In this document: positions 2,367 through 16,118 of the stretch, piece by piece
How positions within the stretch are numbered: the first letter of the stretch is position 1
How the letters are laid out: each line of letters begins with the position of its first letter
From: a virus
Reading direction: 5' to 3' (one strand)
Virus record (IMG/VR): IMGVR_UViG_3300045988_134023
Span: 1-16,118 of that record
DNA length: 16,118 nt
Program-made: the position numbers and the translations under genes
Notes under the pieces: model-generated
The model's input: only the letters and a program-made list of their open reading frames with translations
The model's database searches: none
Told to the model about the DNA's origin: nothing

Positions 2367-3989
2367 TTACTCTACAATTAAATATTGAGTATTTGGATCT
2401 TTACTTGAAATAGCATCATATTCAGATTGAGTTACCACAAGAATAGTATGAACTTGTGGTTGAGTTCCACTTCCATAAGTAACTGGATTAGAAACGCTCT
2501 CAATATCTATATTTCCACTACCTAACAAGCTTTCTCCATTAACTGTCTTGATATTTGTTCCACTAACTAAAGTATCTTGTTTATTTCCTAATCCTGCATT
2601 TAATTCAGTTTCCGTAACATATTCATCAGGAATAGAAGTTAAAAATCCACTATCATTAGTAAGCTCAGATGTCTTAGTTGGTATACCTAAATCTGATAAA
2701 CTCTTATTGCCAGATAACTCAACAGAATTAATCTGAGGTTTATTTGTTAACTGAGTATAGTCAGTAGTCCCTCCAGATATTTCAAGATTACCTTCTCCTA
2801 AAATACTTTCACCATTAATAGTCTTTATATTAGTCTCAGAGACTAGTTCCTCTTGATACCTATGATAACTAGTATCTACTGATACTCCAGTTGGAGTAAT
2901 AGTAGTTAGAATTACAGTATGATTAGCTGTAATACTTTCAAAATGGAAAGTAGCTTGAATACTTTCTCCTGAAGCAAAACATACTTCTGGAGTAGATACA
3001 TCATTATAACCTAGAATACCTACATAATAAAGCTCATATGGTGCGTTATTAAGTATAGCATTCTTAACAGCAGCGAAATCTCCACAAAGAGGAATAGTGG
3101 AATTTATAAATAGAAATGGAATATTAGAACCACTTTTAATTTCTATATTACCTTTTCCAAGTAAAGACTGACTATTGATTGTTTTGATATTAGTTCCACT
3201 TACAAGTAAATCTTGCTTAGTAGCCATCTCTTTATCAAGTGAATCAATCTTATTTCCATCTTCTTCTTGCTTTGTTTTAATAATTGATATGTCTGAAGTA
3301 TTAGTTGCTACTTGAGTAGATAAAGATTCTACCACAGAAGAATCAGCTTTACCAGCAAGTTCTGTTTTTGTTGCATAATCTCCTACAGGCTGTTTAGTAG
3401 CAAGCTGCTCATCAACATAAGTCTTATCTGCTTTACCTGCTAAATCTCCAGAAACCTCTGCTTCAGTTACAAAGTTAGAATCATTAGTAAGCTCACTAAC
3501 TTTAGTTGGAATATCACTCTTTAAAGCATAATCTCCTTTATCTTGTTTTAGATCTATTTTTCCTTCTAAAGAAGTTTCTAATGTATTAACCTTATCATTA
3601 GTTGCATAAGTAGATAAATCTACAGATAATTGAGTCTTATCTTCATTAAAAGCTAATGGAGCTTGAGGAGCAAATACTCCTTGTTTTTCCTCAAGTTTGG
3701 CATCTACTTCTTCTTTAGTTGGATAGTCAATAAGTTTCTCTGTAATTTGATTGTCAACATCTTCAATAGAAGGAATTCCTAATTCTTTAGAAGGAATATT
3801 CCCATTTAATTCAACCCCATTGATTTCAGGCTTAAATTGAAGATCTTGATAGTTACTTGATCCTAACTGAGAACCATCCATAACCTTTACCTCATCATCT
3901 TTATCTATTACTAGAACCTTAGTAACATTTGACTTATCAATTGTATCTACTTCTAATACATTTAGGTAAGGCAGAATAGTATTTTCCAT
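2367..3989 (-). CDS. Tail fibre protein (540 aa) with repeated fibre motifs
   Basis: ATG-to-TAA ORF. It has three copies of LVS-G/E-TNIKT-I/V-N-x-x-S-L/I-LG-x-GN-I/L-E/D-I. It has two copies of Y-x-x-L-x-x-KP-x-IN-x-VEL-x-GN...LGIP followed by SELTNDS-x-F. The C-terminal ILVVTQSEYDAISSKDPNTQYLIVE motif is typical of phage fibres. It contains no Trp codon of either kind. Confidence 0.75.
   Translation of the reverse strand: MENTILPYLNVLEVDTIDKSNVTKVLVIDKDDEVKVMDGSQLGSSNYQDLQFKPEINGVELNGNIPSKELGIPSIEDVDNQITEKLIDYPTKEEVDAKLEEKQGVFAPQAPLAFNEDKTQLSVDLSTYATNDKVNTLETSLEGKIDLKQDKGDYALKSDIPTKVSELTNDSNFVTEAEVSGDLAGKADKTYVDEQLATKQPVGDYATKTELAGKADSSVVESLSTQVATNTSDISIIKTKQEEDGNKIDSLDKEMATKQDLLVSGTNIKTINSQSLLGKGNIEIKSGSNIPFLFINSTIPLCGDFAAVKNAILNNAPYELYYVGILGYNDVSTPEVCFASGESIQATFHFESITANHTVILTTITPTGVSVDTSYHRYQEELVSETNIKTINGESILGEGNLEISGGTTDYTQLTNKPQINSVELSGNKSLSDLGIPTKTSELTNDSGFLTSIPDEYVTETELNAGLGNKQDTLVSGTNIKTVNGESLLGSGNIDIESVSNPVTYGSGTQPQVHTILVVTQSEYDAISSKDPNTQYLIVE
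2502..3209 (-). repeat. Three diverged copies of a 24-aa fibre motif (2502-2573, 2778-2849, 3138-3209); copies 1 and 2 bracket a 96-aa insert domain (2850-3137)
   Basis: Residues 261-284, 381-404 and 473-496 of the 540-aa protein, with coordinates computed from the ORF start at 3989. The copies are conserved at protein level and only loosely at DNA level. Confidence 0.7.
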
Positions 3990-5261: not shown

Positions 5262-5301
5262 ATAAACAAAATAAGGGGCAAGTAAATTAATACTCGCCCC
5301 T
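5262..5301 (-). terminator. Rho-independent terminator downstream of the tail-tube-like gene
   Basis: The minus-strand transcript reads AGGGGCGAG-(10-nt loop)-CTTGCCCCT. The stem is plus 5274-5282 against 5293-5301, with 8 of 9 positions paired. It is followed by TATTTTGTTTAT and lies 11 nt after the TAA at 5312-5314. It is the only GC-rich hairpin in an AT-rich spacer. Confidence 0.7.
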
Positions 5302-5311
5302 CTTTCTGTTA

Positions 5312-5836
5312 TTAAGCACCTACAACGCTTTGGATAGCTTCTGCAGATAACTCATAAGGATAAGAATCTGAATCTGTTGAAAGTGTCAGAGTATAAGCAT
5401 TCTGATCACCTTTAGCAGTACCAGTAACACCCGTACCAGCGGAAGCGCTTACATAATCATCTTTACCTAAGAACCAATACTTACCATTGCTATCTTCAAC
5501 AACAACTGCAAGCTGACCAATTGATAAAGCTGCAATCTCTACTCGTTTTGCGGTTTCCATCTTTGTAAATACAAGAGCAAGCTCATTACTTACATAATTA
5601 ACACCAGCACTTTCATCTACATTTAAAGTTGAGGTTAGAGAACCAGTAGCCTTTCTAAATTGGTAGTTATACCATTTAGCTGAAGACTCAAGAGTAATAT
5701 CTGAAATCATATTGCTCTCAGGATCAACCGTTACACTTTTAACATCTGCATACTGGGTAATCCATACCTGTTTGATTCCACCCAATGAAGGTTGGCAATC
5801 AAGTGTGATTCCTGCGATAGTTATTAAACAAGCCAT
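5312..5836 (-). CDS. Major tail (tail tube)-like structural protein (174 aa)
   Basis: ATG-to-TAA ORF directly after the capsid gene and followed by a strong terminator. Size, composition (MACLITIAGITLDC..., Gly/Thr/Ser-rich C-terminal half ...TGVTGTAKGDQNAYTLTL) and higher GC suggest a very abundant virion protein. The family assignment is from recollection, not a search. Confidence 0.55.
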   Translation of the reverse strand: MACLITIAGITLDCQPSLGGIKQVWITQYADVKSVTVDPESNMISDITLESSAKWYNYQFRKATGSLTSTLNVDESAGVNYVSNELALVFTKMETAKRVEIAALSIGQLAVVVEDSNGKYWFLGKDDYVSASAGTGVTGTAKGDQNAYTLTLSTDSDSYPYELSAEAIQSVVGA

Positions 5837-5876
5837 AATTTCAATATCATTTAGAAGTTAATAAAATCTATTGAAA

Positions 5877-6782
5877 TTAAGCCTTGGCGCCTAATACTAC
5901 TTCGTCAGGGAAAGCAACTTGTACACCAGCGTTAAATTCAATAGCTAATCTGAACTCGCGGAAATCCTGTGAATACCACAATTCGAATTTCTCTTCATCG
6001 TTCATCATATCTACACCATAGAAGAAGTTCTTGTCTAACTGACCAGCAACAATCTTATCAGTTCCATTAAGACCATTAACAGCAATAACCTTAACCTGTG
6101 AACCAGGAAGATAAATCTCACCATTAAGGCTCTCTCCGCTATAGTGGAAATAGTTCTTCTCAACAAGTTCATTTACGAACTTACGGAACATATCGGCACC
6201 AACAAGAATAGAAGCACCATCAAGAACCTTCTCAGGAATTGCATTATAAACTGCCATAATATCAGTATAAGCAGATGTTCCAGCAATTGTTACATCTACA
6301 GTACCAGCATCAGCAGCAAGAATCTTAAGCAGACCATCAAAATACTTCAAGTTATTAGTTTCTGAAGCCGTATCACCCTGCCAGATAGCTATCTCAATAG
6401 CCTCTTTTACGTTCTCTACAACAGCATTTACGAAATCCTCTTCAAAAGGAAGAGTCTTCTGACCAGCGGCTACCTTAACTGCATACTGAGTCCAGTATTT
6501 CAGCATAGCCTTATCGCAATATGCCATATTAATCTTAATATTACCAGTCTTAAGAATTCTCTGAGAAAGAGTCTGAGTTCCAGCCTCATCCCAACCACAA
6601 GTAAGACCATCACCGAACTGAACATCGGTAGATAACAGGTTAAGAGTAGCATCAGTTTTAATATCTGTCTGAAGATTAAACAAACTTGCACTCTTAGCTT
6701 TTAAAACCGCTTCCTTAATAAGAGGGAGACGTCTTTGCTCCACATAAGCAGGAAGCGTTGTCATAATTGGTGAATTTGCCAT
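5877..6782 (-). CDS. Major capsid protein (301 aa, presumably HK97-fold)
   Basis: ATG-to-TAA ORF in the protease-scaffold-capsid position, of a size typical for an MCP that uses a separate scaffold. It lies in the window's highest-GC stretch. All four Trp codons are TGG. Confidence 0.7.
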   Translation of the reverse strand: MANSPIMTTLPAYVEQRRLPLIKEAVLKAKSASLFNLQTDIKTDATLNLLSTDVQFGDGLTCGWDEAGTQTLSQRILKTGNIKINMAYCDKAMLKYWTQYAVKVAAGQKTLPFEEDFVNAVVENVKEAIEIAIWQGDTASETNNLKYFDGLLKILAADAGTVDVTIAGTSAYTDIMAVYNAIPEKVLDGASILVGADMFRKFVNELVEKNYFHYSGESLNGEIYLPGSQVKVIAVNGLNGTDKIVAGQLDKNFFYGVDMMNDEEKFELWYSQDFREFRLAIEFNAGVQVAFPDEVVLGAKA

Positions 6783-6783
6783 T

Positions 6784-7353
6784 TTATAAAATTTTAAATA
6801 ATAATTGTTTGTGAGTTTTTGATCTTCCAGCTATTACATTATCAATAGCTTTCGGATTAAATCCATCTAGTTTTAATTCGTTTCTCGTTTTATACATTTT
6901 AATTAATTTTCCGTCTAAAGAATAACAACCAATGTTATAGTCTTTATGCCAATTAGAGCCAACTCTTGATTTAGAGATTTGAGCTTTAGATACTTCTGTA
7001 TGATGTCTGCCATAAAAAGGATTTTTCTCTCCAGAGTGATTATGACCTTGTCTTTTTCCTCCTTTTAATCCTCCAGGTTCTTGATTCATACATAACGGAT
7101 CTGTTTTTCATAAATCTCCAACTCAATAAGCTTCCCTTTCAGCATTTTCTTCTTTAGAAGCATTCAGTTCAATTATTGTTTTACGGTATGTACCAACTGT
7201 TCCGTATTTATCGAAAAAAGATTTACAAAACCGACCACTGCCTCTATAAGCCTTATCATTTTCTGGCTTATAATTAACTGTTCGTTTTCCTATATAATAT
7301 TTGCCAATATGTTTTGGATGTAGGAAGTCGATTTTATAAATATAATGATACAT
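6784..7353 (-). CDS. GIY-YIG homing endonuclease with NUMOD3-type linker and C-terminal DNA-binding domain (189 aa), read through TGAs at 7123-7125 and 7108-7110
   Basis: Track ORFs 7123..7353 (YHYIYKIDF...KYYIGKR...RGSGRF...AEREAY) and 6784..7089 (GEKNPFYGRHHTEVSKAQISKS...) are in the same frame (7353 and 7089 are both 0 mod 3). The junction translates ...EREAY[TGA]VGDL[TGA]KTDPLCMNQEPGG with no TAA or TAG. Its ATG overlaps the scaffold TAA as TAATG (7351-7355). Confidence 0.85.
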
Positions 7354-7976
7354 TACCCAATAAAGTTCTTAAGTTTCTTATCAATCGTAGGATCTCCACT
7401 AGAAACAAAAGATTTATCTTCTAAACCTTTTTCAAGTGTTTCCTCTGCTGAAAAAGCAGCACTCATCTTACTCATCTTTTCAACCGTCTTTTCTGTAGCT
7501 TCAGATTTACCCTCTAATTCAGCTACTTTCTTAACAAGCTTATCAACAATGTCATAAAGCTCATTAATTTCGCGATGAATAGCGTCGATTGCATCAGTCT
7601 CAGTTTCTTTAACACCGTCTGTTTCAACAGCAGGATCAGCAACTTCCTCAGCTTTTACTCTCTTAGCTCCACAAGCAGCATCAACCTCAACAGTTCTCAT
7701 ACCCTCATCTGGATCAACTTCAGCTTTAGGATCAGTAATGGATTCTACTTTACCGTCTTTAACAACAATAGTTTTGCCATCCTCGGTAATATACTCACCA
7801 TCAGCAGCAGGTGCATATTCGCCAGTATCAGTATCCATTGTATATACACTCATACCTGCCCTTAGATCCTCATCCTCACTACCATCGTAAGTTAGAACTC
7901 CAGCACTAGTCTTAACATCGTTAAATTTTGCTAAGAGTTTACTAAGTTCGATTCTCAGTTTAGTTAATTTGTTCAT
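7353..7976 (-). CDS. Capsid scaffolding protein (207 aa)
   Basis: Highly acidic protein with helical and coiled-coil termini (MNKLTKLRIELSKLLAKF..., ...INELYDIVDKLVKKVAELEGK). It sits between the protease and capsid genes and contains no Trp. Confidence 0.65.
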   Translation of the reverse strand: MNKLTKLRIELSKLLAKFNDVKTSAGVLTYDGSEDEDLRAGMSVYTMDTDTGEYAPAADGEYITEDGKTIVVKDGKVESITDPKAEVDPDEGMRTVEVDAACGAKRVKAEEVADPAVETDGVKETETDAIDAIHREINELYDIVDKLVKKVAELEGKSEATEKTVEKMSKMSAAFSAEETLEKGLEDKSFVSSGDPTIDKKLKNFIG

Positions 7977-8571
7977 ACTTAAATTTAAAATTTTTATGAT
8001 AGTTTTGTTTATTTTTGCAACATTTTATAATAGCACTATGATCAAAATTTCCGTTTCTTTCAGCGTCCATAGCAGATTTCCAAGTGCATATATAAGTATC
8101 ATTAATATCTGTCATAATTATACGTTTACTTACTTTTTCTTTCTGCTGTTCAGTTTGTTTAGTTCCCAATCTACATTCTCTTAACTTTAATTTTGTTTCA
8201 TCCTTTAATACTCTTCCAGACTGTTTTAAAGACATTTTGTGTTTAGATTCTTCACTGTGTTTAAATCCAGTATTAGAACCTCCACCTTCATTTAAATTAT
8301 AACCATTATTTAATGTATCAAATAACTGAATATATTTAATTTCTGCATTATTTAGTTGTCTTTTCAATAATTCTGTAGAAGAACAACAAAAGATTTGAAG
8401 AATTTCCCATTTAAAGTTATTGAATCCATATTTCCTAATCGCTCTATGAAAATATGTAAGATTAGAACTGTATTTATGTTCATTCTTTCTTCTCAAGAAA
8501 TTATTTGTTTGTCCTACATATTTATTGCCATTTATAAGATTTGTTGCTAGATATATAACTCCACTATACAT
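7960..8571 (-). CDS. GIY-YIG homing endonuclease (203 aa) with NUMOD3-like repeats and a C-terminal DNA-binding domain
   Basis: Motifs are GVIYLATNLINGNKYVGQT...RRKNEHKY...AIRKYG...AEIKYIQLFDTLNNGYNLNEGGG, then GFKHSEESKHKMS and the tail ...SAIIKCCKNKQNYHKNFKFKY. The ATG is 1 nt after the protease TAG. The 3' end overlaps the scaffold start by 17 nt. It has no TGA codon. Confidence 0.85.
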   Translation of the reverse strand: MYSGVIYLATNLINGNKYVGQTNNFLRRKNEHKYSSNLTYFHRAIRKYGFNNFKWEILQIFCCSSTELLKRQLNNAEIKYIQLFDTLNNGYNLNEGGGSNTGFKHSEESKHKMSLKQSGRVLKDETKLKLRECRLGTKQTEQQKEKVSKRIIMTDINDTYICTWKSAMDAERNGNFDHSAIIKCCKNKQNYHKNFKFKYEQIN

Positions 8572-8572
8572 T

Positions 8573-9163
8573 CTATTTAACTCTTTTTATTTTTCTCAAC
8601 ATTTTTTGAATCTCTTTAAGTTCCTCATATTCATCAGATTGTCTTTCTAAAGTAAACAATCCCTCAATAGAGAACCCTTTAAACTTTCCAGCTTTAATTG
8701 CATCCCATATAACAGGATTATTTACTTTATAAGTAGCAAATAATGAACCATCTGGACAATCAGCAAATTCAACTGGATTAATTCCTCTATCTATATCTTT
8801 AACATATAGTTCTTGAAGAATTATTCCAGGAATTACTGAATCTTCCAAATGTTCAATATTTACATCAGTAGTTCTCTTATCATACATCATTTTTTCAGCC
8901 ATTAAACGGAGAGTTTCTTTATCATATTGAATATAATATTCTCCGTTTTTACTATCCCGTCTAAATATAGGTATATCACATACCATTAAACAAGAAGTAA
9001 CTATATGTTTTTCTTCATCCATCGAGAACTTCTGAGATTCCCCAAAAGCAAGCCAATTAACTTGGGTTGCAGGTTTACTGGTCAATGCTACGAACTCTAT
9101 TCCATCACAATCATCAGCAATAATTGCTTGATATAATGGAAGATCATTATACATTTTTTCCAT
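8573..9163 (-). CDS. Putative prohead protease, XkdF-like (196 aa)
   Basis: ATG-to-TAG ORF immediately upstream of the scaffold and capsid genes. The N-terminal region (...IEFVALTSKPATQVNWLAF...HIVTSCLMVCDIPI...) resembles my recollection of the XkdF-type phage serine protease family. This has not been verified by search. Confidence 0.5.
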   Translation of the reverse strand: MEKMYNDLPLYQAIIADDCDGIEFVALTSKPATQVNWLAFGESQKFSMDEEKHIVTSCLMVCDIPIFRRDSKNGEYYIQYDKETLRLMAEKMMYDKRTTDVNIEHLEDSVIPGIILQELYVKDIDRGINPVEFADCPDGSLFATYKVNNPVIWDAIKAGKFKGFSIEGLFTLERQSDEYEELKEIQKMLRKIKRVK

Positions 9164-9219
9164 TTTTTATTAATATATAAGCTATTTTAAAAATGTAATA
9201 TTGTTACAATCTTTTATTT

Positions 9220-9248
9220 TTATATATTTATATACTATCAAATGTCAA
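9220..9248 (-). promoter_or_regulatory. Candidate sigma70-like promoter for the head operon
   Basis: The minus strand reads TTGACA (9248-9243), a 16-17 nt spacer, then TATATA/ATATAA (9226-9220), about 57 nt upstream of the protease ATG. AT-rich DNA yields such matches by chance. Confidence 0.25.
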
Positions 9249-9294
9249 GTTTTTTACTCAAATTTGTATCTAAGATAAATAAATTTTGACATAG

Positions 9295-9338
9295 CACTAC
9301 TATATAAGCACTGATAATCAGCAACTTACATAGTAGTG
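9295..9338 (-). terminator. Hairpin just downstream of the tape-measure stop; a weak terminator or regulatory structure
   Basis: A perfect 9-bp inverted repeat, cactactat (9295-9303) and atagtagtg (9330-9338), encloses a smaller palindrome ctgat-a-atcag (9311-9321). It starts 21 nt after TAA 9359-9361. The T-rich run is not immediately adjacent, so terminator function is uncertain. Confidence 0.3.
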
Positions 9339-9358
9339 TGTCAGAAATTTTACTCACT

Positions 9359-12049
9359 TTAGAAACTTGCATTTGATTCTGTAACTGCAACTTTAGTTTG
9401 AGCATTAGTAATATCACTCTCAACTACATAGCATTTAACAGGTTCATTTAATAAATCAGTCTCTTTATCACCAAGTAAGTTTCGAGTATATTCTACAGGA
9501 GCAGTGTTTAAAGCAGCAGGTGCTGCAACAGATGCAGAAGCAAAAGATGCAGATGCTCCACTAGTTTCATCTACCTCTCAAATCTTTTTAACATTAGCCA
9601 TACCAGCTGCAATTGCTGCAGCAGCGGCGGCAGCACCTAAAGCTGGGCCCACTATAGGAATGCCAGCCATAGCTGAATATGCTGAGTTAGCCGCAGAATA
9701 AGTGTCAATTAATGCTTGAGCAGTAGCAAATCCTTTACCTACTTTACTTTCCTCTCCTCAAATACTTGCCATACTTCCAGCAATACTAGAAGCTACAGAT
9801 AAAGTACCTTGTAAAGCTTGCTGCCTTGCTTTTTGAAGATTTTGGTATGCTTGTGTATTAGCCTGTTCATTAGCTAATTGAGCGTCTGATAGAGCTATAT
9901 TATTTTCAGTAAGAGTTCTTTGTATCTCTTGCTTCTGTTCAGCAGTAAGCTGCTCATTCATTAACTGTTGATTTAATAAAGAGTTTTCCTGCTCGATTCG
10001 ACTTTGAGTTAATGCTAGTAAATTATTATTATATTCAATTTGAGCGTTATACTGGTTCTCTAAATCTTCTCTACTTTGATATGTAAACTTATATCCAGTT
10101 CCTTCGTAATCTCCAGCTAATCCAAATGCTTTCGATATACCTTGAGTATAAGTAGTCTGAAAGGTCTGCTCTCTTGGCTCTCTCAAATTACTTGTAGAAG
10201 ATAAATCTCTAATCCTTTTTAATTCAGACTGTAGATCATTCCAAGCTTTATCTGCATCTTCCTTACGCTTAGCTTCTTCATCAGCTCTAGCTTTATCTCT
10301 AATCTTTTTAAGCTCTTCCTGATGCCAAGCTTCTACCTCTTCAATTCCCCTATTATACTTAATAGCTAATGCTAATAGTCTAATATATTCATCTTCAAGT
10401 TCATCTACTGGGTCTTTATCCTCTAATCTCTTTTGAAGCCATTCATCAAATTCATTAATTACCTTCTTAGCTTCAGTAGTGTTCTTTGTAATAGTTGGAA
10501 TATTAAAGAATCCACCATACTTTTTATTAGTATCTGCTACATCCTCAAATAGCTTTCTAAGCCTTTTCTCAATGTCTTTATTTAAATCATCCAACTGTTT
10601 ATAAGTATTCTCTTTATTTTGCTTTGTGTACTCATAAATTGTATTTGAATAATCTTTTCAGAACATTGCTGTAGCTTTAAAAGCCTGTCAAGCTGAAGCT
10701 TCCCCAAAATTAGTATCTTCAATCTTATTCTCTAATTCGGTGCGTTTATTTAGATATTCTTCATAAAGTTTGATAGCTGCCTGTTCAATAGCTTGTGCTT
10801 TAGCTCTTGCTTCTAAGGCTTCTACATAATTGCCTGTATTATTTACAAAGGCATCTTCAGCAGTCTTTACATCAGTAATATTTAATCCAGTCTCTTTAAT
10901 CTTATCTGAATATTGCTCAATGAATTTACGTTTATCATCTGCTGAATCTCCAACACTCTCATATGCTATCTGAAGCTCTTTAAATATAGCAATAGACTTA
11001 GAAGAAATTTGATTAGTAGCATCAGTGATAGATTTTCTAAATTCTTCTTGCTCTTTAGCAGCTGTTCTTATAGAAGATACATAATCTATTACCTTATTAA
11101 TAGCTAATCCAATAGCTGTAGCTAAAGCTATCCATACTGTTACATTACCAATAGTTTTAAGAGCTGTAGTTGCTTTTGAAAATGCTGTAGTTGCCTTAGC
11201 AGCTTGTGAAGTCCCATCTGCCAGCCCTTTCGCAGCATCTGCTTGTTTATTCAATGCGGCTGCAATTGCTGGAGAATTCCTTTTTAATCTCTCTAACTCT
11301 TCACTGGTGACTTTCATACTGTTAGCAGAATTCTTAACAGTATCATTAAATTTGCCAACTATGGGAATGGTATTAGAGACGCTTTTATTAGTAGAATTTA
11401 TTTCCCCAGGAGTGCCCATTACTCCTTGAATCATACCTCCTTTAAAATTAATATTGGCCCCCTCTAAATCTTTTACAACTTTAGAAATATTTCCCAATTC
11501 AGTACCAACATTTCCAACAGAAGTGCCAATATTATTTAGTTTAGCGGCATCAATATTATTAAGATTTTTAGCAGCATTGTCTAATCCAGTATTAAAAGGA
11601 GTAATATAATCTACCAACTTCTTAAATCAATTCCCTAAAGCAGGTAGCTCTTCAATCAAATCTTTTATACCTCCCACACCTTGAACTAAAGCAATAGTAG
11701 ATTGTAACTTAACCATTACTTTATTTAAATCTTCTGATTCTTTGCCAAATAAAGTAATAGCAGCAGTTGCAGCACCATATCCACTAGCTAAGCCAGTGGA
11801 TATTTTAGCTACACTTTCAAATCTCTGTGCAGTAGTTCTTGAAGATCTTGCTATCTGCTCATTAATTTTATTGAATTCTGATTGTCTCTTACCAAGTAAT
11901 GAAAGAGTTTCATTATATTCCTTAGTACCAATCTCTAAATCATTCAGCGAATTAGTTAATGCATCAATATCTTTCTTTAAAGAATTTATTGATTTATTAC
12001 TTGATTTAGTATCTACACTAATTACTTTTTTAATTTCTATTTGTGCCAT
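9359..12049 (-). CDS. Tape-measure-like protein (896 aa), read through five in-frame TGAs (11627, 10688, 10658, 9758, 9578)
   Basis: Track ORFs 11627..12049, 10688..11617 and 9758..10594 share one frame (differences of 432 and 1023 nt). I translated every junction and the 9359-9757 tail and found only TGA interruptions, with a true TAA at 9359-9361. The protein has long coiled-coil Q/E/K/N-rich stretches plus hydrophobic Gly/Ala segments (GLASGYGAATAAITLFG; GPALGAAAAAAAIAAGMA), as is typical of tape-measure proteins. Confidence 0.65.
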
Positions 12050-15000
12050 TAGATTGTAATATTTTTAACAGTATCTTCTGTTAGTGTTAAATTCTCTGTA
12101 TATTTAATTGTTCCTGTTGGTCCGTCAGATACTCTAAATAAAAATTGAACTCCATTTTGAGCATATATTCTATAACTTCCATCATCTCTCATATAAGTGA
12201 TATTTAAGAAATTATCATTTTCAGTTAGAATCTGATTAACGCCAGAAGGAATACCTCCAGTAGAAGTTTGAAGTTTTCCTGTAATAAGAATAGCTTTATT
12301 TGGGTCTGGAGTTTGAGTAAACATACATTGAGGGCCATCTATACTTCCTTGTTTATAAAGACTAAAATAGAAACTCCTTTGGTCATATGTAGTATTCTCA
12401 TTATATGTAACTGTCAATTCTGTTTCTCCAAGCTGCCCAGATTCAGGTGTAATGCTTACAATTTCATTTGGACTATATCATCCTAATTCTCAAGGAATAT
12501 TAGAAGTAACTGTAATCTTTTTAGTCCCAGCTTTATAATCTACAACTGGATCTGAATCATCAAATGATATATATTCACCTAGATTTTGAACTCCAGCTAA
12601 ATAACTATTAATATCTTGAACTTTAATAAATTCACATCTAACTGTAGAATCTGAATTAATATCATAAGCATCAATCTTATTAAGTACCCAGTAAGAATCT
12701 TCAAAATAATAGAATTGTCTAAGTAAATCATACTTAACATCTAAATCATCTAATCTTACAAAGCAGGTAACTTTTTTAGTATTTACATCAAATTGATCAT
12801 TATAAAATTCACTTCAGAATCTACTATAAATAGTACTTCCGATATTATAAGTTATATCATCAATATAAATCTCTTGTGGTAATCCAAAATCTCAAGAAGC
12901 AGTAACATTAGAGGACGAAACGGTATACCTTGTAAATTGAGGTAATACAGTTCTCTTTATAGCAATTTTATTCCCCCTAATATCTTTCTCACTTTTAGTA
13001 GATATATAACACATTTCCTGATCATTTAATATGTTCATTTCTGTAAGATCATCTGTAATTCAATATGTTACTTCATTTCCTTTTACATCAGTTAAAGGAA
13101 CATTACCGTTAAAGAATACTAGGGATTGAGAGATATCCTCTAAAGATTCCTCATTACCATCAATTGAGAAAAATACATTTTTGGCAAATATATCATTACC
13201 TGCGATTTTATATCATTCTGTGGTTTTAGAGGGATCTATAAAATTAGCTCCGTATAACTCTTGATCTATAGTCTTAAGTTCAGTAGTGCTATTATTAAAT
13301 AATGTATAGGTAATATTATCATTCATAAATGCAGGAACTACAAGGGAAGAAGAATTGTAAAAATTTCTAAAATATTTATTTCTCCATCTTGCAGAAACTA
13401 TATTTTCATATATATTATCACTATACAGTTCAGTTGTTTCAGAATTAAAATTATAACCAGTATTTAATCTTTGTTGACCATATAATATAGAATATTCCTT
13501 ATTGTATTTTTTATAAAAATAAGTTTCTGGACCTTCAGAACTCATTCTATATCACTTCTTATCAAATAATATTGGATTTACATTGAAATCTTTAGAATAA
13601 TCTATTCTCTTGCTCCAATCAGAGATTATATTCTTAAAGAAATTATTTCTAGTATATATTCTAATTGTTTTACTATCAATATCTTTTGTAAAATATAACC
13701 CAAATAGTTTTGCATAACTCAATAAGTAATCAGCAGGAGATTGTTCTGTTTTTAATAATAATTTTTTAGTTAATAATGCATTACTTTGAAGTACCTCTGT
13801 AGAAGTAGTAATTTCAATGGGAGAAGTAAGATCTACTATAAGATCTCCTTTTGGAATAGCTTGGTAATCCTCTCCTCTTTCTATTACTTCACTTAATAAT
13901 CCAGTAGGGCGAACACTATTTCCAGTAGATCATACAACATTAAGTTTAATTTTAATTTTATTAATTGGAATTTTAAAATTTGTAATATTAATAACAAAAT
14001 CATTAGTTAATGAAGAAGTATCATAAAATACATTATTTTGAAAATACCCAAAATGATTAACCCCATTAGCTATAGGATGTGAGTAGGTTCCTGAATTTGT
14101 AAATCTATGTATTTCAGAAGTATAAATAGTATCATCTACTTCATTAGTAATTGTTAGCCAAACATCAGCGTATCCTCTATATGCTGAATAAAAAGAAGGA
14201 GCAGAGGAGCTAAAATACCTTCTAAATCCAAAAAAATATCTATCCCCAACATTTCCTGCAGTTCGATTAAACTTTAACTTAAAATAAAAAGTTGTAGAAA
14301 GGCTTTTTCTAAATCCAGCCTCACTTAAATCAATTATTCCAGAATCGTAAACAATATCAGGTGATGCAATGGATAATTTTAAAGGACTTGATGTAGATTC
14401 TCCTTTATTTATACCTACCTGATAATTATATTTACTATCTTCTACTAAAAAGCCAGATTCTGTTACATCTTCTTCGTCACTTACTAGATTAGATAATAAA
14501 GGTAAAGCTACAAAGGATTTACTTCAATACGGATTATTTCAATTAAAAAATGAAGGATCAAATACTACATCATATCCAGAATTCTCTTTTCTACAGATAG
14601 TTTCAATTAACTTACTCAATTTTAAAGCTGGCCTTTGCATATAACTTCTAAGATCTCTCATCTCCCATTCTGTATATGCTCTATTTAATTTAGCTAATCC
14701 ATACCCATTATAAGGTGTATATGTAACTCCTGAATCTGTCTTACTAGTAGGAAATATACTATTTTCATTAGTATTTATTAAACAAGTTTCATTATCAAAA
14801 TCTTCATATAAACCATTATATGCTGGAATAAATGTCAAATAATCATATATTTGACTTCCTTCATTCGTTTTACTTCAGTCAAAACAAGTATTTACAAAAT
14901 CTTTATTAATATAAAAATTAAGTTCAGTATCAGCAGGAAGTGTATTCCCATCTTCATCAGTTACAAAGTATTGTAAATCAGCAAAAGTCCTAATAGTACC

Positions 15001-15405
15001 ATCTTCTTTATATTTAAGTCCATAGAAGAAATCTCCTAATCCTCCATATAAAGTAATATTATAAGTAATAACAGCTTGTTTTATAGATATACTATTTAAT
15101 TGCATATATCCAGATTCAACTAAATAGTCATTATTATAGATTCCAAAATCAACTCGTTTTGAAGGATCAAAATATACTCCAGAGAAATTACCTTCTTTTA
15201 TATGGAGAAATCTATCTAACTTATAAATCTCTCCAAAAATCTTATTATTATTCTTTGTGCCAGGTATAGAAATCGTTTTACTAAACGAGTTCTTGACTAT
15301 AGTGGGGTTTTGGAAATCCTCAACAGTATATGTCATAGGAAGACTAATTCCCTCACTACAGTCAACCTCTTTATTTGCAATAAATAGTTTTATATTCTTT
15401 CTCAT
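12049..15405 (-). CDS. Large virion or tail structural protein (1118 aa), function unassigned (baseplate or host-interaction candidate), read through 11 in-frame TGAs
   Basis: Track ORFs 14875..15405, 14539..14838, 13213..13545 and 12049..12417 all end at coordinates that are 0 mod 3. I checked every triplet of the gaps (12418-13212 and 13546-14538). The only stops are TGA at 14875, 14539, 14524, 13930, 13552, 13213, 13060, 12892, 12814, 12490 and 12478. It starts at ATG 15403-15405. TAA 12049-12051 overlaps the next ATG as TAATG. Confidence 0.75.
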
Positions 15406-15407
15406 AA

Positions 15408-16118
15408 TTATTTACGATAAGTATCTTGAGAAGCTTCTACATTAATTGTATAATAGAACTTGTTTTTACCTTGATTAGTATAAGTTTTATATTCACAATT
15501 TGTATCTGTAATCAATACTGGAGTGATAGTATTATCTTTAAGATTATGCAAATATACTTTGGTACTCTCAATTAGATTAAACATCTTAGAAGCTTGAATA
15601 TCATTTAAATAACCAGTATAAAGAACCCAGCTTGAAGTTATAGTATTCAAATACTTATTTCTTGCAAACTCTTGTGATGTATTTAATACCTTACGAGTAT
15701 ATGTTTCAGATTTAATCTCATCATTCTTTTTAACATTACCCTCAACAAGTAATGAATCTCATCCACCTGCTGAATTAGTATAATACAACACATAATCTTT
15801 ACCTGTAGTATCTATATCATATCTAATCTGTCTATCACTAATATTTCCACCTTCTACAAATCCTACTATTAAATAGCTTCCACAAGGCCATAATTTATTA
15901 CTTAAATCTTCTGTATATGTATATCCATTAATTCCAGAATTTAAACTAATATCCATAGCAGATTGTACTCCATCTATATAAAAGAATCTATTAATAACTC
16001 CAGTTCCAGTTGGTAGAATTCAACTTGATACTAAATACTGCCTTGGATCAACTAAACCAGTAATAGGATCACTTAACATAGTGCCTTTAGTTAGATCTCT
16101 ATCTTTATAACTCCAGTC
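15408..16118 (-). CDS. Virion or tail structural protein, C-terminal 236 aa; the gene continues beyond the window end; two in-frame TGAs (16020, 15759)
   Basis: Track ORFs 15759..15956 and 15408..15650 are in one frame (both 2 mod 3). The gaps 15651-15758 and 15957-16118 translate without TAA or TAG. It ends at TAA 15408-15410, 2 nt before the next ATG. Confidence 0.65.

Follow-up and report, generated by a model that had tools for sequence, protein, structure and literature searches.

Why should a phage that reads TGA as tryptophan (Trp) write every Trp of its head and tail-tube genes as TGG? The question arises in the IMG/VR virus record IMGVR_UViG_3300045988_134023, whose complete length of 16,118 bases was analyzed (hereafter the window). 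The record is rated 53% complete, carries every gene on the minus strand, and is half of a gut phage of ~30 kb in which TGA is recoded to Trp. A search with its capsid protein recovered 58 related loci in viral contigs, many of them in ~30 kb records that are complete or have terminal repeats. For comparison we fetched 25 genomes that read TGA as Trp, together with a sibling that uses the standard code, G007; family counts given below are over 27 genomes. The four genes in question, and the comparator genes upstream of them, are as follows.

8573 to 9163, minus strand: head maturation protease (XkdF / Peptidase_S78_2 type), 196 aa; 0 TGA, 2 TGG; GC 0.305.
7353 to 7976, minus strand: scaffold-like protein, 207 aa; no Trp in the window; GC 0.380.
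5877 to 6782, minus strand: major capsid protein, 301 aa; 0 TGA, 4 TGG; GC 0.394, with GC at third codon positions (GC3) of 0.309, the highest of the window.
5312 to 5836, minus strand: probable tail tube protein, 174 aa; 0 TGA, 3 TGG; GC 0.381.
15408 to 16118, minus strand: C-terminal 236 aa of a 726-aa virion protein (p726) truncated at the contig end; 2 TGA, 3 TGG.
12049 to 15405, minus strand: tail/baseplate-like protein of 1118 aa (p1118), comparator; 11 TGA, 5 TGG.
9359 to 12049, minus strand: tape-measure-like protein of 896 aa, matching PHROG tape measure families, comparator; 5 TGA, 4 TGG.

Our recount agrees with the original prediction that the protease, capsid and tube genes use TGG at all nine of their Trp codons (two, four and three, respectively) and that the scaffold gene has none. 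The 18 TGA reported for the three upstream genes were likewise recovered, and the 12 TGG reported alongside them hold when the frame at the contig end is left open at its 5' end, with 11 counted if a 223-aa open reading frame is taken instead. That 223-aa gene at 15408-16118 was dropped, the segment being the C-terminal 236 aa of the 726-aa protein; the fragment is 99% identical to residues 491-726 of its counterpart in the relative G001. Altogether, the four genes contain 0 TGA and 9 TGG, versus 23 and 18, respectively, in the remaining genes of the window (Fisher p=0.002). Moreover, TGA-free genes with at least two Trp codons are more frequent in the window than their Trp counts predict (permutation p=0.001); in five complete relatives the permutation p for this excess ranges from 0.017 to 0.39. 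Genes downstream of the tube gene are also free of TGA, in the window only; they have few or no Trp, and the copies in relatives carry TGA.

That TGA encodes Trp here is clear from alignments of the relatives, in which its partners are TGG (122 cases), Tyr (37), Leu (17), Phe (14) and Gly (5); with 5 Gly alignments against 122 for TGG, a reading of TGA as Gly (code 25) is ruled out. The 1118-aa and 896-aa genes fall into fragments under code 11 and are whole under code 4, and the coding density of the sibling G008 is 0.93 under code 4 versus 0.74 under code 11.

To place the nine codons in the context of the phage family, 967 genes from the 27 genomes were clustered, and the TGG share (TGG among Trp codons) was calculated for each gene family.

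Scaffold: TGG share 1.00 (0 TGA, 20 TGG).
Capsid: TGG share 0.99 (1 TGA, 102 TGG).
Tube: TGG share 0.97 (2 TGA, 62 TGG).
Protease: TGG share 0.92.
Portal: TGG share 0.88.
Connector-like DUF6712: TGG share 0.86.
p726: TGG share 0.70.
Terminase large subunit (TerL): TGG share 0.57.
p1118: TGG share 0.57 (197 TGA, 261 TGG).
Tape measure: TGG share 0.55.
Three homing endonuclease families: TGG share 0.31-0.46.
Helicase-like, 572 aa, on the opposite strand: 0 TGA, 84 TGG (20 genomes, 18 distinct sequences).
Holin-like, 53 aa: 0 TGA, 29 TGG.

The order of the virion families by TGG share is the one that their likely virion copy numbers would predict. At the level of Trp alignment columns, the mean TGA fraction is 0.03 in the four genes (10 columns) versus 0.43 elsewhere (102 columns; p=0.0002), 0.12 in the portal and connector (p=0.011), and 0.00 in the five columns of the helicase-like gene (p=0.0013). 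With families taken as units, the four genes again rank higher in TGG share than the rest (p=0.004). About half of the genes bear the recoded codon (median 0.54), and in the tape-measure-like gene seven of nine conserved Trp columns are mixed TGA/TGG among relatives. The statement that TGA is avoided "entirely" therefore holds for the window and has to be relaxed for the family, where the protease carries one TGA in 8 of 27 genomes, the tube gene has TGA in two and the capsid gene in one. One might still ask whether nine codons, chosen after the fact, could reflect chance, as the sample from one window is small and heterogeneity among genes is not significant in three of the five complete relatives. 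Given the column-level and family-level tests across 27 genomes, and the recurrence of the pattern in G008 and, with another stop codon, in the more distant relative L071, we regard chance as scarcely credible.

The helicase-like gene (G001 27991-29709; L061:12991-14709, minus strand) was recognized by eye from SF2-helicase-like motifs and has no Pfam match; it has a GC3 of 0.158, with alleles down to 71% identity, and its position and strand suggest that it is probably expressed early. The small genes adjoining it bear TGA, including one just downstream. One neighbor, a 53-aa gene at G001 27757-27918, has TGA at its single Trp column (10 TGA, 0 TGG). Similarly, a small sigma-70 region 4 / helix-turn-helix (HTH) gene at G001 927-1172 has nearly all TGA at its single Trp column (18 TGA, 4 TGG in the family). 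This near-exclusive use of TGA may represent inertia or regulation.

Relatives with other codes provide a further comparison. L071 (CAVCAD010000156.1, from a Bacteroidaceae metagenome-assembled genome [MAG] bin) is syntenic with the window and has a capsid that is 48% identical; in this relative TAG is a sense codon and TGA a stop. Its scaffold, capsid and tube genes contain no TAG in 647 codons versus 16 in the 1520 codons of the two large tail genes (Poisson P=0.001), and Gln is encoded by CAA at all 12 of its positions in the capsid gene. Because the avoidance of TAG is not a choice at the third position, GC3 cannot account for it in L071, which is an independent replicate with a different stop codon and the same direction of effect. 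The ~30 kb sibling G007 (the record of L039; also L080 and L081) matches the window in gene order, shows 66% identity in the capsid and follows the standard code: in-frame TGA is absent from its substantial genes, where every Trp codon is TGG, and only 3 of its 38 genes end in TGA. As this standard-code genome is a sibling, the code changed within the phage family, and the broader family holds standard-code, TGA-recoded and TAG-as-sense members.

We favor, with moderate confidence, an explanation in which the recoded stop codon is costly and selection clears it from genes that act early or at high dosage, whereas AT-biased mutation spreads it elsewhere. Such mutation would push TGG toward TGA, reaching about 40-45% of Trp codons in most genes. 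Decoding of the recoded TGA would be costly or incomplete, owing to limited suppressor capacity or to competition from a release factor, and selection would purge TGA best where the product is needed most or first. The strength of purging would thus fall from the scaffold, capsid and tube to the protease and then to the portal and connector, and the TGA-free helicase-like gene, probably early, would belong with the genes whose product is needed first. The analysis demonstrates the codon pattern, that it is conserved, that it goes beyond general codon bias and that it recurs in L071, whereas we infer host, expression levels and decoding cost. The original prediction had suggested that the most abundant virion proteins are kept free of TGA; as a pattern this stands, and selection is its probable cause, as indicated by the abundance order, the excess over bias and L071.

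Several points weigh against this explanation. Copy numbers and expression levels are assumed from general phage biology, the four genes offer only ~10 Trp columns, all on one tree, and the holin-like and helicase-like genes are TGA-free though they do not encode bulk proteins. Tests of heterogeneity within single genomes are weak (permutation p 0.0001 to 0.34). Release-factor competition might be expected to leave some trace, yet the following base is alike after TGA and TGG (p=0.36), and the position of TGA inside genes shows no bias. Two further comparisons align Trp with the general codon usage of lysine, glutamate and glutamine (K/E/Q): by a cruder measure, columns fixed for G, the odds ratios are alike (Trp 9.5, K/E/Q 8.4), and in the capsid gene alone the G-ward shift is 1.82 logits for Trp and 1.52 for K/E/Q, which are inseparable.

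These last two comparisons bear on ordinary codon optimization, in which the preference for TGG would be one case of a general preference for G- or C-ending codons. Translational selection is known to give the most abundant proteins the strongest codon bias and higher GC3, opposed by AT mutation pressure. The head genes do use G-ending K/E/Q codons more than the rest (~0.45 versus 0.27) and C-ending two-fold codons as well (0.20 versus 0.11), and the families show a weak correlation of TGG share with GC3 (rho 0.37, p=0.03). However, the use of G-ending K/E/Q codons does not predict TGG share over 33 families (rho 0.19, not significant), and the column-weighted G-ward shift of the four genes is 2.27 logits for Trp against 0.69 for K/E/Q, a difference of 1.59 (bootstrap 95% interval 1.06-2.11). 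Without the capsid, the protease, scaffold and tube genes retain a shift of 1.83 for Trp versus 0.32 for K/E/Q, and the helicase-like gene, for all its low GC3, shifts by 2.10 for Trp and -0.04 for K/E/Q. When the portal and connector are added to the four genes, an effect of head class remains after control for K/E/Q (+2.7 logits, t=3.3). Conversely, the endolysin and the small HTH gene combine high G-ending K/E/Q use with many TGA. The effect on the recoded stop is several-fold above that on other A/G pairs and extends to TAG in L071, which marks it as stop-specific. General codon optimization is accordingly a possible but rather unlikely account of the whole pattern, and the simple version in which TGA avoidance is mere G-ending bias was dropped, being limited by the codon-frequency tests and L071 to the capsid gene at most.

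The original prediction had also described the block as GC-richer than the rest of the window. Its hand counts are exact (28 of 60 G+C at 5881-5940 and 10 of 60 at 13921-13980), and the description is apt for the tube, capsid and scaffold genes; the protease gene lies close to the window mean of 0.31, and the GC maximum of the window (0.41) falls inside the tape-measure-like gene, at 9501-10000. In the window, the GC excess of the head genes is present at all three codon positions, and their products are enriched in Ala, Val, Asp and Glu and depleted of Asn and Ile. The same excess is found in the standard-code sibling, G007 (capsid 0.369 and tube 0.377 versus 0.27 for the genome), and in L071, whose capsid and tube genes are likewise GC-rich. 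A GC-rich capsid and tube are common to every member whatever its code, and in TGA-reading members these genes are also TGA-poor. The higher GC of the capsid, tube and scaffold genes is a separate, older trait that derives from amino-acid composition and a preference for C- or G-ending codons.

These data also address a different evolutionary origin of the head block, proposed in the original prediction. Under such a reading, the block would have come from a GC-richer standard-code phage and would not yet have adapted. Modules are exchanged freely within the family, to judge from protein comparisons: across 435 genome pairs, capsid identity shows next to no correlation with that of p1118 (rho 0.13), 47 pairs combining a capsid identity >97% with a p1118 identity <75% and 56 pairs showing the reverse; moreover, capsid relatives occur in genomes of GC 0.28 to 0.62. 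Against an import stands the GC-rich state of capsid and tube in all members, including G007 and the TAG-reading L071. At Trp positions shared with the standard-code sibling, TGA has reached 40% in other genes versus 2 of 47 in the head genes, so old Trp codons elsewhere have already converted. Synonymous sites of the capsid gene are not frozen, since close relatives differ by A or G at 58% of its conserved K/E/Q columns. The idea that slowly evolving proteins simply keep an ancestral TGG was ruled out as well, since in other genes the shared positions, at 40% TGA, resemble newer ones at 47% (p=0.24). Because the GC-rich state is family-wide, and given the contrast of 40% with 2 of 47 and the 58% of variable columns, neither recent import nor simple retention fits, and we consider a foreign origin very improbable.

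Two more proposals of the original prediction were that the most abundant virion proteins are kept translatable under either code and that recoding acts as a timing or gating device for a subset of late genes. In such a device the TGA-free helicase-like, head and tube genes would be translated in a standard-code host, and the tail, fiber, lysis and endonuclease genes would await a switch, in keeping with a published model for recoded phages (bioRxiv 10.1101/2021.08.26.457843). Consistent with this, the helicase-like gene is free of TGA in 20 genomes despite the divergence of its alleles, standard-code and TAG-as-sense siblings exist, and the available clues to the host point to standard-code Bacteroidales. 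None of the 16 genes examined in the window, and 3 of 35 in G001, have a Shine-Dalgarno sequence before the start codon, where the DNA is A/T-rich. In G001, a Peptidase_M15_3 gene (E=2.3e-14) adjoins a small hydrophobic holin-like gene in a lysis cassette, and 12 of 13 relatives of this lysin in reference genomes are in Bacteroidales MAGs. The host is, by these indirect genomic clues, probably a walled member of the Bacteroidales, which would use the standard code; no prophage or CRISPR link to a host was obtained. TerL matches to cultured phages, at ≤29% identity, are uninformative on the host. For the capsid protein, GenBank phages gave no match, and reference genomes gave only two distant relatives, on contigs in a Bacteroidaceae MAG bin and in an "Azospirillum CAG:239" MAG bin.

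However, filled heads would be impossible without decoding of TGA, as TerL has one to three TGA in 25 of 25 genomes and TGA also occurs in the portal (12 of 26), the connector (12 of 24) and, as noted, the protease. The notion of heads made under either code thus fails, and what stands of it is the pattern of avoidance. A gate is poorly supported too: the TGA-free helicase-like gene speaks in its favor, but the late genes form a gradient instead of two classes, and since they are ordered by likely copy number, a dosage effect fits better than an on/off gate. Furthermore, TGA-rich tail genes immediately precede the head genes on their strand, the small gene just downstream of the helicase-like gene bears TGA, and no tRNA, release factor or tryptophanyl-tRNA synthetase (TrpRS) gene was found that could make the switch. 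We therefore judge a timing or dual-code device quite unlikely.

Two features flank the protease-to-tube block and are relevant to its expression.

9164 to 9358, minus strand: gap of 195 bases between the tape-measure-like and protease genes, the longest of the stretch.
5273 to 5302, minus strand: hairpin resembling an intrinsic terminator (stem of 12 pairs plus a T run), immediately 3' of the tube gene.

The gap contains TTGACA and is a possible promoter region of a head-tube unit, by its placement; neither of the promoter motifs searched (sigma-70 type and TAnnTTTG) occurs above chance. A hairpin with a T run is found at the same site in G003, G008 and the standard-code G007, with differing sequences. 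The upstream gap and the conserved terminator-like hairpin fit a discrete, strongly expressed head-tube unit, and the protease, scaffold, capsid and tube genes are probably one such late unit.

Searches for a suppressor tRNA or another RNA gene were negative: ARAGORN detected no tRNA in the window and five complete genomes, and Rfam models found none in G001. Nor did a release factor or TrpRS gene turn up in the Pfam scans. Phage-encoded suppressor tRNAs (anticodon UCA) are frequent in recoded phages and not obligatory, with published rates of 15-35%, and an undetected suppressor tRNA is a gap noted in published work for many recoded phages. An alternative, which we consider speculative and unlikely, is that the number of TGA per gene attenuates translation and thereby contributes to virion stoichiometry, with decoding partial by design. 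As part of that scheme, bulk proteins would have no TGA, twelve-copy proteins none or one, and low-copy tail, fiber and endonuclease proteins many, and a phage without tRNA genes would rely on a suppressor from the host or from a co-infecting helper phage.

A large code-4 phage was encountered among the relatives. G006 (L072-L079), a 148.6 kb contig that holds L029, is not a host chromosome: its first ~119 kb belong to another, large code-4 phage, with which a copy of the 30 kb phage is continuous. The large phage encodes a 772-aa TerL with 10 TGA, ThyX, fibers, 11 tRNAs and a transfer-messenger RNA. At the junction, a 962-aa fiber gene shares a match to PHROG 16348 with the 540-aa fiber of the window, which suggests a chimeric assembly or an exchange at a common fiber gene. 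The large phage also has two weak tRNA-like matches that contain long inserts (minus strand, L076:3537-3665 and L076:3801-3905) and that ARAGORN does not call; no tRNA with a UCA anticodon was found in this phage.

The gene order along the minus strand is p726 C-terminus, the 1118-aa gene, tape measure, protease, endonuclease, scaffold, endonuclease, capsid and the 174-aa protein, and 3' of the 174-aa gene the window contains two receptor-binding/fiber cassettes and an HNH endonuclease. Some fiber proteins lack Trp altogether: those at 2367-3989 (540 aa) and 662-1201 (179 aa) of the window, and that at 17123-19336 (737 aa) of G001. The protease matches Pfam PF14550 (E=1.2e-7) and PHROG protease families, the capsid matches PHROG 11320 and 1623 (virion structural protein), and p1118 has a weak match to BACON_2 that falls under the Pfam cut-off. 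The scaffold-like protein has no family match and is a candidate scaffold because its gene lies between those of the protease and the capsid and its sequence is rich in Ala, Glu and Lys. No sequence family of known function in PHROG or Pfam matched the 174-aa protein; its AlphaFold model (pLDDT 75) gives phage tail or tail-tube structures as its first four Foldseek matches in the PDB, all weak (E≥4.7e-3, TM 0.3-0.4), and it is a probable tail tube protein on the strength of this predicted fold. Two GIY-YIG-type endonuclease genes sit on either side of the scaffold gene.

7960 to 8571, minus strand: GIY-YIG homing endonuclease, 203 aa, insertion; 0 TGA, 2 TGG; GC 0.257.
6784 to 7353, minus strand: homing endonuclease (NUMOD3, GIY-YIG family), 189 aa, insertion; 2 TGA, 1 TGG.

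Both are considered insertions because G001, which is 98-100% identical to the window in the genes around them, lacks both at these sites. The sole TGA codons inside the block are, as originally reported, the two in the gene at 6784-7353; the gene at 7960-8571 had been omitted. The latter matches Pfam GIY-YIG (E=3.2e-8), NUMOD3 and PHROG 314 (E=1e-32), and its family is TGA-rich overall (48 TGA, 25 TGG); the former matches PHROG 314 (E=7e-16) and Pfam NUMOD3, with family totals of 24 TGA and 11 TGG.

Gene-family tests of recoded-codon use in phages of clades including Garnet, Amethyst, Topaz and Agate showed that integrases avoid the recoded codon and that lysis, tail and endonuclease genes prefer it (Borges et al., bioRxiv 10.1101/2021.08.26.457843). 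The family described here resembles those phages in reading TGA as Trp, in its gut origin and in having standard-code and TAG-reading relatives at short distance, and its small genome (~30 kb) resembles Garnet and Amethyst. As in those phages, the recoded codon is found in roughly half of the genes. In both, a replication-type gene (here the helicase-like gene) lacks the codon and homing endonuclease genes prefer it; the intron endonuclease of Agate phages is reported to be TGA-rich, as are the endonuclease families here. That study groups structural genes into a single recoded late block, while here those for bulk virion proteins are exempt and use of the codon among late genes falls as likely copy number rises; such an exemption of bulk virion proteins was not found in the literature searched. 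In contrast to recoded phages with a suppressor tRNA, none was found here in any complete genome searched.

In crAss-like phages, TGA or TAG recoding occurs in late genes, and suppressor tRNAs match recoding imperfectly, for which a host suppressor or an undetected tRNA has been proposed (Yutin et al., 2021; PMC7886860). The present family is similar in its likely Bacteroidales host and in code switches between close relatives, and differs in its ~30 kb genome and gene content. In-frame stops in crAss-like capsid, TerL and portal genes served as evidence for recoding (PMC7886860), and because crAss-like capsid genes often carry recoded stops, avoidance in the capsid is not universal. Phages of code-4 hosts (Mycoplasma, Spiroplasma; PMC11210395) likewise read TGA as Trp without a phage suppressor tRNA, yet the family differs from them in the M15_3 cell-wall peptidase of its lysis cassette, its standard-code sibling, its strongly gene-specific avoidance of TGA, and lysin relatives in Bacteroidales instead of Mollicutes. 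A wall-less host would make a peptidoglycan lysin needless.

Taken together, the exemption of head and tube genes from the recoded codon is genuine, conserved and backed by the statistics; it is a modest variation on a phenomenon already published, and its mechanism is one that we infer. For annotation, it means that a TGA-free capsid gene is no proof of the standard code. The family offers natural replicates, with standard-code, TGA-recoded and TAG-as-sense siblings that share the same gene order. If decoding of the recoded stop is indeed costly, phage recoding would be a trade-off that shapes which genes carry the codon instead of a neutral change of alphabet, and this would bear on which genes convert first after a code change and on why many recoded phages have no detectable suppressor tRNA.

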